Positions 8,138-8,940 of a stretch of DNA of 64,000 nucleotides are shown here, one piece after another. The stretch covers positions 17,348 to 81,347 of the forward strand of contig JBCCYL010000004.1 of NCBI GenBank assembly GCA_039189765.1. Direction: 5' to 3'. This DNA is from Cyanobacteria bacterium P01_F01_bin.150. Lineage in GTDB: Bacteria; Cyanobacteriota; Cyanobacteriia; CAKZMO01. The notes beneath the pieces are model-generated. The model was not told the DNA's origin and made no database searches. It worked only from the letters and a program-made list of their open reading frames with translations. Positions within the stretch are counted from its first letter, which is position 1; every line of letters begins with the position of its first letter. A program made the position numbers and the translations under genes.

Positions 8138-8215
8138 GCTCCTGTAGCCCAACTGGCAGAGGCGGCTGTCTTAGAAGCAGTCCATGTGTGGGTTCAAATC
8201 CCACCAGGAGTACCA
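8138..8215 (+). tRNA. Class-I Leu-like tRNA, anticodon TAG, A73, CCA encoded (paralog family member 1)
   Basis: acceptor gctcctg/caggagt, arm gctgt-ctTAGaa-gcagt, short variable arm, T-arm gtgggttcaaatcccac. Confidence 0.6.
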
Positions 8216-8268
8216 AATTTGCGTCCGGGTCCCTCCCTTTAGCAAGGAGAGGGCTAGGATGAGGTCAT

Positions 8269-8344
8269 TGCCGAGTGGACGAATTAGCAAGTCGCCTGAC
8301 TCTGAATCAGGAGGTTGTAGGTGCAAATCCTACCTCGGCATCCA
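8269..8344 (+). tRNA. tRNA-Gln (CTG) copy 2 (near-identical duplicate of 7928..8003), CCA encoded
   Basis: same sequence as copy 1 except T-loop tgcaaat; upstream gtcat flank also duplicated. Confidence 0.6.
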
Positions 8345-8404
8345 AACATTTCCTGAGGTTATCCGATCACTTTGCGCTCAGATCTCCTCCAAAAAAGATT
8401 TCAT

Positions 8405-8475
8405 TGCCTTCTGGTGTAATGGCAGCATCTTGCACTTTGAATGCGATGGTCCAGGTTCAAGTCCTGGGAGGGCAG
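8405..8475 (+). tRNA. tRNA-like gene with anticodon TTG (Gln-type), short D-arm
   Basis: acceptor tgccttc/gagggca, arm ttgca-ctTTGaa-tgcga, T-arm ccaggttcaagtcctgg. Confidence 0.45.
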
Positions 8476-8533
8476 TCGGGGGGAGCAGGATATAGCCTGG
8501 GTCAAATTTATCCTTAACCTCCTGTTTTTTCAT

Positions 8534-8611
8534 ACTCCTGTAGCCCAATTGGCAGAGGCGGCTGTCTCAGAAGCAGTCCACGTGTGGGTTCAAATCCCAC
8601 CAGGAGTACCA
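8534..8611 (+). tRNA. Class-I Leu-like tRNA, anticodon CAG, A73, CCA encoded (family member 2)
   Basis: acceptor actcctg/caggagt perfect; loop ctCAGaa; same backbone as 8138. Confidence 0.6.
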
Positions 8612-8620
8612 ATTTTTTAA

Positions 8621-8698
8621 GCTCCTGTAGCCCAACTGGTAGAGGCAACTGTCTTAAAAACAGTTCATGTGTGGGTTCGAATCCCATCAGGAGTACCA
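8621..8698 (+). tRNA. Class-I Leu-like tRNA, anticodon TAA, A73, CCA encoded (family member 3)
   Basis: anticodon stem actgt/acagt carries compensatory changes relative to gctgt/gcagt; loop ctTAAaa; no group I intron in loop. Confidence 0.6.
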
Positions 8699-8703
8699 TC
8701 TAT

Positions 8704-8778
8704 CCGGGTGTAGCGCAGTTTGGTCAGCGCATCTGGTTTGGGACCAGAGGGTCGCAGGTTCGAATCCTGCCACTCGGA
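8704..8778 (+). tRNA. tRNA-Pro (TGG)
   Basis: acceptor ccgggtg/cactcgg, A73, arm tctgg-ttTGGga-ccaga. Confidence 0.7.
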
Positions 8779-8782
8779 CTTT

Positions 8783-8860
8783 GCTCCTGTAGCCCAATTG
8801 GCAGAGGCGGCTGTCTCAAAAACAGTCTATGTGTGGGTTCAAATCCCACCAGGAGTACCA
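8783..8860 (+). tRNA. Class-I Leu-like tRNA, anticodon CAA, A73, CCA encoded (family member 4)
   Basis: same backbone; loop ctCAAaa. Confidence 0.6.
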
Positions 8861-8864
8861 GCAC

Positions 8865-8940
8865 ACTCCCGTGGCGGAACGGCAGACGCACCAGACCGAG
8901 GATCTGGGTTTTGTGGGTTCGAATCCCACCGGGAGTACCA
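8865..8940 (+). tRNA. Class-I Leu-like tRNA, anticodon GAG (C33), A73, CCA encoded (family member 5; different D-arm)
   Basis: acceptor actcccg/cgggagt, arm ccaga-ccGAGga-tctgg, T-arm gtgggttcgaatcccac; starts 4 nt after previous tRNA. Confidence 0.5.

Follow-up and report, generated by a model that had tools for sequence, protein, structure and literature searches.

Class I leucine tRNA genes in a cyanobacterial tRNA array

The stretch of DNA analysed here, referred to as the window, comprises 64,000 nt of contig JBCCYL010000004.1 (positions 17,348 to 81,347, forward strand) in assembly GCA_039189765.1 of Cyanobacteria bacterium P01_F01_bin.150. It includes a long tRNA array (L-array), in which five genes with the leucine anticodons UAG, CAG, UAA, CAA and GAG have the short variable region of class I tRNAs (Table 1). 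All five genes were detected by ARAGORN and by the Rfam tRNA model (RF00005), the latter with scores of 53.2-58.5 bits against a gathering score of 29. As judged by cloverleaf parsing, each gene has a perfect acceptor stem of 7 bp, perfect anticodon and T stems of 5 bp each, a canonical T-loop, G18G19, A73 and an encoded CCA. The variable regions of the four 78-nt genes are CCAUGU, CCACGU, UCAUGU and CUAUGU, and with 5-6 nt none of the five regions reaches the more than 10 nt of a class II variable arm. An alternative fold with a long variable arm was considered and ruled out, as the genes are 73-75 nt in length before the CCA and only 5-6 nt are available between the anticodon and T stems.

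Table 1. Positions of the features described in the text. Positions refer to the window unless a metagenomic array is named.
Feature	Position	Strand	Details
HNH homing-endonuclease gene	4514-5077	+	Pfam HNH/HNH_5; upstream of the array, in the position of Anabaena all8564
132-aa open reading frame (ORF)	5148-5546	+	tagged Pfam Alr0857 family; upstream of the array
Putative array promoter	5821-5873	+	sigma-70-type, TTGACA-18-TATTAT at 5833-5862, 11/12 consensus match
L-array	6331-10543	+	~37 genes: 31 by ARAGORN (6331-10423) and ~6 more
Degenerate tRNA-Tyr(GUA)-like gene	7076-7159	+	long variable arm CGCG-UAA-CGCG
Tandem duplication, Gln(CUG)-Gln(UUG)-Leu unit	7904-8616	+	apparent source of the extra Leu copies
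tRNA-Leu(UAG), class I	8138-8215	+	78 nt with CCA; 6-nt variable region CCAUGU; A37
tRNA-Leu(CAG), class I	8534-8611	+	78 nt with CCA; 6-nt variable region; A37
tRNA-Leu(UAA), class I	8621-8698	+	78 nt with CCA; 6-nt variable region; no intron
tRNA-Leu(CAA), class I	8783-8860	+	78 nt with CCA; 6-nt variable region; apparent ancestral scaffold of four paralogs
tRNA-Leu(GAG), class I	8865-8940	+	76 nt with CCA; 5-nt variable region GUUUU; G37
Val(UAC) with T-loop insert	9607-9704	+	
Arg(UCG) with T-loop insert	9947-10045	+	
Ser(CGA) with T-loop insert	~10224-10337	+	
Ser(GGA) with T-loop insert	~10428-10543	+	
NADAR-domain ORF	10983-11435	+	directly downstream of the array
T-loop inserts, metagenomic array L249	~190-300, ~300-410		
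T-loop inserts, metagenomic array L251	near 1098-1121, 2372-2392	-	
T-loop inserts, metagenomic array L252	~170-280, ~960-1065		

An earlier note, made from the sequence alone, had described a class I scaffold bearing these five anticodons, with A73, an encoded CCA and no group I intron in the UAA gene, and in these respects it was accurate; the UAA gene is 78 nt in length. Its description of the genes as five paralogs applies to four of them. The UAG, CAG, UAA and CAA genes are 84-95% identical to one another, but the GAG gene is 68-69% identical to these four and has its own D arm (GCGGAACGGCAGACGC), nearly identical to the D arm of class II tRNA-Leu, its own anticodon stem and a C6-G67 pair. 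The acceptor stem said to be common to the five is perfect in each, but the first pair is G1-U72 in three genes and A1-U72 in two, and the GAG gene differs at the sixth pair as above. Likewise, the supposedly common T arm, GUGGGUUCAAAUCCCAC, is exact in three genes, but G57 is found in the UAA and GAG genes and a G49-U65 pair in the UAA gene. The compensatory substitutions proposed for the anticodon stem did not hold up, as the changes among the four paralogs are one-sided and convert wobble to Watson-Crick pairs (G27-U43 to A-U; U31-G39 to U-A); true double compensatory changes are seen only when the GAG gene and homologues from elsewhere are compared. The chance that five distinct anticodons drawn at random from 64 would all be leucine anticodons is 6/7,624,512, and the all-leucine set on these five genes is far from a chance assortment.

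Distribution of class I tRNA-Leu

Related genes were collected using a pattern scan for the Leu-type D-arm half GCAGASG at class I distance from the T-loop, applied to one genome per GTDB species and to IMG/VR. The scan yielded at least 120 genome loci and at least 120 viral loci, these counts being lower bounds and biased toward the D-arm motif of the query. Among the matches listed, leucine anticodons were carried by ~95 of the 103 matching tRNAs in genome loci and by 103 of the 112 in viral loci, at lengths of 73-79 nt. At least 242 distinct class I tRNA-Leu were collected in this way from phages, arrays and actinobacterial chromosomes. The 120 viral loci contain, among the matches listed, 126 class I tRNA-Leu genes, 91 selected by the pattern and 35 co-resident with these. 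For co-resident tRNA-Leu genes outside the pattern selection, the ratio of class I to class II among the loci listed is 27:4 in genomes and 35:28 in viral contigs.

Class I tRNA-Leu genes were found in three settings. In the genome loci listed, they are stand-alone genes in many Actinomycetota, a spread that goes well beyond the single published case, the CAA gene of Streptomyces coelicolor. The second setting is tRNA arrays in Cyanobacteria, Acidobacteriota, Elusimicrobia, Verrucomicrobia, Gemmatimonadota, Chloroflexota, Planctomycetota and Actinomycetota and in a metagenome-assembled genome of Lachnospiraceae, and the third is phage tRNA clusters. The search for homologues in other cyanobacterial arrays, which the earlier note had proposed, recovered short tRNA-Leu genes in the trn operon of Anabaena PCC 7120 (four genes), in a Kovacikia array (five) and in a Cylindrospermum array (five), and all the tRNA-Leu genes of these three systems are 74-78 nt in length.

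The stand-alone genes carry UAA, CAA or UAG anticodons, with one tRNA per 8-kb locus, and their hosts include Microbacterium, Nocardioides, Demequina, Leucobacter, Nonomuraea, Nocardia, Bifidobacteriaceae and Acidimicrobiales (example loci are L005, L007-L011, L015, L017, L019, L020, L022 and L027-L033). Two further forms were noted. The tRNA-Leu(UAA) of the two Microcoleus arrays (L078:6929-7011 and L101:2066-2148) has a variable region of ~13 nt, UCUAUUUUGAUUG, with no convincing stem, and may be an intermediate in the loss of the long arm. Three viral contigs (L132:8365-8439, L152:10383-10457 and L175:1262-1336) contain identical tRNAs on a Leu scaffold, to which ARAGORN assigns the anticodon UCAA in an 8-nt anticodon loop; these may be quadruplet decoders or a mis-parse by ARAGORN.

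Leucine identity features

The elements listed for the Escherichia coli leucyl-tRNA synthetase (LeuRS) are A73, U8:A14, A15:U48, G18G19/U55C56 and U54:A58 (PMC6614811). At the sequence level, all five genes in the window carry U8, A14, A15:U48, G18G19 with U55C56, U54/A58 and A73. In the fetched loci, A73 is present in 237 of 241 class I tRNA-Leu (98%), and in 275 of 279 over all tRNA-Leu. The A15:U48 Levitt pair is found in 95% of the 242 distinct class I tRNA-Leu, as compared with 94% of the class II tRNA-Leu in the same loci (n = 33). The window genes also keep the 3-bp D stem with unpaired 13:22 that is typical of class II tRNAs; this feature is shared by 98% of class I and 88% of class II tRNA-Leu, but among Thr, Lys and Arg tRNAs by only 6-16%. 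For the D-arm motif GGNAGA(S)GN, the counts are 203 of 246 class I tRNA-Leu, 10 of 33 class II tRNA-Leu and only 2 of ~970 other tRNAs. The features that would direct a tRNA to alanine (G3:U70) or serine (a long arm) are both absent from the five genes.

Long arms are kept by 70 of 72 tRNA-Ser and by all 30 tRNA-Tyr in the same loci as the class I tRNA-Leu. The long arm is used by SerRS and bacterial TyrRS and is dispensable for bacterial LeuRS.

Isotypes were further assessed using sequence-only hidden Markov models (HMMs) made for this purpose; the training set was the collected tRNAs, stripped of the variable region and with a masked anticodon. The GAG gene scored best with the class II Leu HMM (42.6 versus 26.5 bits), and the four other Leu genes scored best with the Thr, Arg or Lys HMMs. 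The class II Leu HMM ranked the five Leu genes within the top 7 of 31 window tRNAs. These models are crude and misassigned 4 of 26 control tRNAs from the window. Published tRNAscan-SE isotype scores for homologous tRNAs of phage Sf14 place Leu first, at 67.4 for UAG, 60.2 for UAA and 49.1 for CAA (PMC12482277).

Covariation within the family

A covariance model was built from 18 cyanobacterial short tRNA-Leu and searched on 84 genome loci that were not used for training. Leucine anticodons are carried by each of the top 85 hits, and by 113 of the 125 hits overall. In the alignment from this search, 99.3% of cells in the cloverleaf are paired, as compared with 65% after shuffling and 38-49% with slid partners, and both-sided changes occur at 19 of 20 pairs. 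This level of pairing, together with the both-sided changes, is strong evidence for selection on tRNA structure in the class I Leu family. The claim that the genes are under selection, for which the anticodon stems of the window copies had been cited, is upheld, for tRNA structure, by the cloverleaf of the family.

Duplication and anticodon switching

In other arrays, every leucine anticodon is on a separate scaffold lineage. The UAG and CAG copies in the window are 93-95% identical to the CAA gene beside them and 91% identical to the Kovacikia CAA gene; with most of the UAG and CAG genes in Anabaena, Cylindrospermum and Kovacikia, their identity drops to 57-72%. For the UAG copy, identity to the Anabaena and Cylindrospermum UAG genes is 57-64%, the exception being the Kovacikia UAG gene, which has the same scaffold (85%). 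The UAA gene is 87% identical to the Cylindrospermum UAA gene, also on the same scaffold, and 65-67% identical to those of Anabaena and Kovacikia; the UAA gene usually located between Lys and Met is missing from the window array. The CAA gene is 93% identical to that of the Anabaena trn operon, 92% to that of Kovacikia and 85% to a stand-alone chromosomal CAA gene of Streptomyces, and the GAG gene is orthologous to the GAG genes of Kovacikia (86%) and Cylindrospermum (81%).

Part of this region has arisen by duplication in tandem of a unit comprising Gln(CUG), Gln(UUG) and Leu. One element within the unit is present twice, at 7904-8009 and at 8245-8350, with 92% identity between the copies, and the UAG and CAG genes have common flanks. 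The identity patterns and the common flanks indicate that the UAG and CAG genes are recent duplicates of the CAA gene in which the anticodon was switched, and the UAA gene is probably another. Switching of this kind would be possible because LeuRS ignores the anticodon. The rebuilding of a five-anticodon set suggests selection for a complete set.

The array, its promoter and neighbouring genes

The genes of the array all lie on one strand within 4.2 kb, with spacers often of 2-10 nt, and with at least 20 dense tRNA genes on the same strand the array belongs to the L-arrays. A BLAST search of plasmids with the window array recovered the trn operon on the delta plasmid of Anabaena/Nostoc PCC 7120 and the Kovacikia array. 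A common gene order is found in the arrays of the window, Anabaena, Kovacikia, Cylindrospermum NIES-4074 and two Microcoleus arrays.

The putative array promoter, located ~470 nt upstream of the first tRNA gene, aligns almost base for base with the mapped promoter region of the Anabaena trn operon and is overlapped by four TGTADTAY repeats, which lie over its -10 box. In Anabaena, footprinting placed the repressor TrcR on TGTAGTAT at the trn promoter (PMC10272220), and the repeats of that promoter confer induction by translation inhibitors (PMC8421152). The repeats in the window are putative TrcR-type operators.

The HIP1 octamer (GCGATCGC) occurs 71 times in the window as compared with 0.8 expected, and its abundance identifies the window as cyanobacterial. 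The window is also chromosomal, including genes for polyphosphate kinase (ppk), a RadA-like protein, arginine decarboxylase, NDH-2 and invertase. No gene for LeuRS or another synthetase was found among the large ORFs of the window, which comprise those just named and a WD40 kinase. HIP1 is present inside the array spacers as well (6173, 6196, 7167, 7359 and 9900), which suggests that the array has been resident in its host long enough for amelioration.

Three protein-coding genes flank the array. The HNH gene, the 132-aa ORF and the NADAR-domain ORF may be co-regulated accessory genes; alr0857, after which the family of the 132-aa ORF is named, is a member of the TrcR regulon in Anabaena. The Tyr-like gene was not detected by ARAGORN, falls below the threshold of the Rfam tRNA model and scores 29 bits with the tRNA-Sec model. 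It is probably a decaying class II Tyr gene, at the position of Tyr in other arrays.

An insert in the T-loop of other array tRNAs

At its 3' end, the array has four tRNA genes (Table 1) with a conserved 26-nt insert in the T-loop, between positions 55 and 56. The insert consists of a covarying hairpin, followed by CGC-NNNC-GCG and then AA. The stems of the first hairpin are TTCCC/GGGAA, CTCC/GGAG, TCTC/GAGA and TCTCC/GGAGA, and CGCC-UUC-GGCG replaces CGC-NNNC-GCG in one copy. With six further genes in three syntenic metagenomic arrays (Pro, Met, Glu, Ser(UGA), class I Leu(UAG) and class I Leu(UAA)), ten insert-bearing tRNAs are known to us, with inserts of ~24-27 nt placed after U54/N55 and before C56. 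All were missed by ARAGORN, and two are read by Rfam as tRNAs with a 33-nt T-loop. No match to the insert was found in the viral contigs or in the plasmid-borne Nostoc and Tolypothrix arrays, and a match in L116 was discarded as a chance match inside a coding region.

No description of this insert was found in the literature. Possible readings are a new type of intervening sequence or intron in bacterial tRNA, a mini-element that targets the T-loop, or an extension of the elbow. The intron reading would be noteworthy in view of rtcB, which is reportedly linked to such tRNA arrays and regulated together with them. The T-loop insert deserves a follow-up of its own more than the Leu genes do.

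Interpretation

We consider it probable, at roughly three chances in four, that the five genes are functional leucine-accepting class I tRNAs in a horizontally acquired L-array orthologous to the Anabaena trn operon. The array would be transcribed as one precursor, probably from the promoter ~470 nt upstream, and the TrcR-type operator repeats would keep it silent in normal growth and allow its induction under translational stress. The precursor would then be cut into tRNAs with the CCA already encoded, and the five Leu tRNAs would be charged by the housekeeping bacterial-type LeuRS. LeuRS ignores the anticodon and, in several bacterial systems, the long arm as well; it recognises A73 together with the core geometry formed by U8:A14, A15:U48 and G18G19 with the T-loop, all of which are kept by the five genes. 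As the Ser and Tyr synthetases use the arm and LeuRS reads elsewhere, the long arm could be lost from tRNA-Leu and not from tRNA-Ser or tRNA-Tyr. With no constraint on the anticodon, duplication of the CAA gene followed by anticodon mutation would have regenerated the UAG gene, the CAG gene and probably the UAA gene, and the full five-anticodon set would have been kept.

Several points weigh against this interpretation. The structure, conservation, covariation and synteny of the genes and the similarity of the promoter are matters of observation, but expression, regulation and leucylation in this organism are what we infer from them. The type I tRNALeu of S. coelicolor is not charged by E. coli LeuRS, and A73 is not an identity element in S. 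coelicolor (PMC6614811); the failure of the E. coli enzyme indicates that charging depends on the LeuRS of the host. The four CAA-type paralogs score ~40 bits with the Thr, Arg and Lys HMMs and 27-32 bits with the class II Leu HMM, in the same crude models that misassigned 4 of 26 controls. The UAG and CAG copies have A37 and not the G37 (the site of 1-methylguanosine, m1G37) that is usual in CUN-reading tRNA-Leu, and are thus without the G36-G37 context for m1G37. Because A37 replaces G37, these two copies may decode less accurately. A37 is common among array and phage tRNA-Leu, being present in 20 of 24 CAG genes and 22 of 46 UAG genes of the class I collection. Finally, three genes of the Anabaena operon are pseudogenes (PMC8421152), and the literature found does not name them. 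As the operon has four short Leu genes and only three pseudogenes, at least one short Leu tRNA must be charged there; the Anabaena GAG copy, which has a broken T stem, is likely one of the pseudogenes.

The genes could instead be decaying, non-functional relics of an imported array, which we regard as very unlikely. L-arrays are weakly expressed in standard conditions, and both the Anabaena pseudogenes, with the broken T stem of the GAG copy, and the degenerate Tyr-like gene in the window array would agree with decay. However, the stems are perfect and the T-loop is canonical in each of the five window genes, which also keep G18G19 and encode CCA; the family is 99.3% paired with abundant compensatory change; and the restoration of a complete anticodon set by duplication and switching argues for selection. 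Still less credible is a role in mischarging or recoding, in which a Thr-, Lys- or Arg-like class I body with leucine anticodons would insert another amino acid. The HMM scores of the four paralogs fit this idea, as does the suggestion of misacylation as one cause of the aberrant gel mobility of Phe and Ile tRNAs from the Anabaena operon (PMC8421152). The genes nonetheless combine the Leu-specific A73, A15:U48, unpaired 13:22 and GGNAGA(S)G D-arm motif, and lack both the G3:U70 of Ala and the long arm of Ser. ThrRS, LysRS and ArgRS are anticodon-dependent, and leucine anticodons should block them. In addition, leucine anticodons are the only ones borne by this scaffold across more than 100 independent genomes; for homologous phage tRNAs, Leu has the highest score among the tRNAscan-SE isotype models (PMC12482277); and no mistranslation was seen in Anabaena at the codon tested (PMC8421152). 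The mischarging, suppressor-like and non-translational readings offered in the earlier note received no positive support.

A further possibility, which accepts charging by LeuRS and differs in holding that loss of the arm was selected and not merely tolerated, appears unlikely, though less so than the two above. Array and phage tRNA-Leu might in this case evade toxins or defence nucleases of the host, or further factors by which type II tRNAs are recognised, and the short forms might conceivably serve as nuclease-resistant back-up decoders in translational stress or infection. Loss of the long arm would then be, doubtful as we think it, a hallmark for which mobile tRNA arrays were selected as they moved from phages to plasmids and on to chromosomes. 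Were this true, LeuRS would be the sole type II synthetase to tolerate the loss, and leucine decoding would survive translational stress or abortive infection. Such selection would fit the concentration of class I tRNA-Leu in mobile contexts (126 in the 120 viral loci listed, and arrays of many phyla), the HNH endonucleases that accompany the clusters, the proposal that tRNA arrays are anti-defence systems (PMC12803027) and the induction of RNase toxins before the Anabaena operon (PMC8421152). On the other hand, this analysis turned up no nuclease that specifically targets the long arm of tRNA-Leu in bacteria, and in many Actinomycetota the stand-alone class I genes look like ordinary chromosomal genes. 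Many phage clusters also mix class I and class II tRNA-Leu (35:28 among the co-resident, non-pattern-selected genes of the loci listed), and the fact that Ser and Tyr tRNAs are not shortened is explained by relaxed constraint without selection.

Taken as a single locus, the genes are part of a further copy of the cyanobacterial L-array; for the Anabaena copy, expression, charging and a benefit under translational stress had been demonstrated earlier. Short-armed Leu tRNAs are widespread in phages, tRNA arrays and actinobacteria, and earlier work had noted them, so that the genes, unusual as they look, are of an essentially known type. What the wider collection adds is that short-armed tRNA-Leu form a large coherent lineage that extends over phages, mobile arrays in at least eight phyla and the chromosomes of many actinobacteria, and are not one Streptomyces oddity. 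The textbook rule that bacterial tRNA-Leu is class II is regularly broken, and the lineage is a natural data set for the recognition of armless tRNA by LeuRS. The five-anticodon set built from one scaffold would be a clean natural instance of anticodon switching under an anticodon-blind synthetase.

Comparison with known systems

In the earlier note, every known bacterial tRNA-Leu was held to be class II and the genes were taken for a possibly undescribed family. The first statement is contradicted by the type I tRNALeu(CAA) of S. coelicolor (PMC6614811) and by a mycobacterial tRNALeu(UAG) (PMC6582537), and the second by these published cases, by the four short Leu genes of the Anabaena trn operon and by phage genes annotated as tRNA-Leu. 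Full-text searches for short or type I bacterial tRNALeu found mentions for Streptomyces and mycobacteria only. The short arm is not discussed in the cyanobacterial and array literature found, which does not extend to Puerto-Galan & Vioque 2012 or the supplements of PMC8421152.

One likeness is to human mitochondrial tRNALeu(UUR), which is also class I with A73 and is charged by a bacterial-type LeuRS (PMC6614811). It is organellar, follows other identity rules and is not charged by S. coelicolor LeuRS, and homology to the window genes is not claimed. In mycobacteria, a short variable loop was noted in the tRNALeu(UAG) of a horizontally acquired cluster (Behra et al. 2019, PMC6582537). Like the window array, this cluster is accompanied by an HNH gene, and its short-loop tRNA coexists with long-armed chromosomal isoacceptors; the host is an actinobacterium, and only one isoacceptor was noted.

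Phage class I tRNA-Leu, as in the Mooglevirus Shigella phage Sf18, Citrobacter phage Moogle, Gordonia phage Sixama and Streptomyces phages, match the window genes over their full length at 74-80% identity. They are 74-79 nt, lie in tRNA clusters with interspersed HNH genes and are annotated as tRNA-Leu by tRNAscan-SE. In Sf18, the Leu tRNAs are 77, 78 and 79 nt in length, as compared with 88 and 93 nt for Ser and 88 nt for Tyr, and in Sixama Leu tRNAs of 76, 74 and 75 nt lie beside HNH genes while Ser and Tyr stay long. Unlike the window genes, those of phages are found in viral genomes of unrelated hosts and usually cover two or three leucine anticodons. To our knowledge, there is no TrcR-type control of phage class I Leu genes.

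The type I tRNALeu(CAA) of S. coelicolor (Fan et al. 2019, PMC6614811) shares U8:A14, G18G19, A73 and a short variable loop, of 5 nt, with the window genes. A CAA gene that stands alone on a Streptomyces chromosome has 85% identity to that of the window. The S. coelicolor tRNA is leucylated by its own single LeuRS and by human mitochondrial LeuRS, and deletion of the arm from the class II tRNALeu(UAA) of the same species left charging unharmed (PMC6614811). In contrast to the window genes, it is encoded by a single, apparently essential housekeeping gene outside arrays and has C48 in place of U48, and its charging depends on features of the leucine-specific domain of Streptomyces LeuRS (PMC6614811).

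Also among the closest known systems is the trn operon of Anabaena PCC 7120 on plasmid pCC7120delta (Puerto-Galan & Vioque 2012; Santamaria-Gomez et al. 2021, PMC8421152; for TrcR, PMC10272220), in which 23 of 26 tRNAs were detected only under inducing conditions, were aminoacylated in vivo and were present in polysomes (PMC8421152). Whereas that operon has 26 genes on a plasmid, the window array is chromosomal with ~37 genes. It has five leucine anticodons, including CAG, in place of four Leu genes; three of its Leu genes appear to be rebuilt on the CAA scaffold and are not orthologues of the Anabaena UAG and UAA genes, and four of its tRNAs have T-loop inserts, which are absent from Anabaena. 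The two arrays nevertheless share the order Asp-Glu-...-Phe-Asn-Gln-Gln-Leu(CAA)-Pro-Leu-Leu-Lys-...-Met-Thr-Gly-...-Arg-Ala-His, an upstream HNH gene, a promoter with repeated TGTAGTAT-like operators, Leu genes that are all 75-78 nt in length, and CAA genes that are 93% identical.

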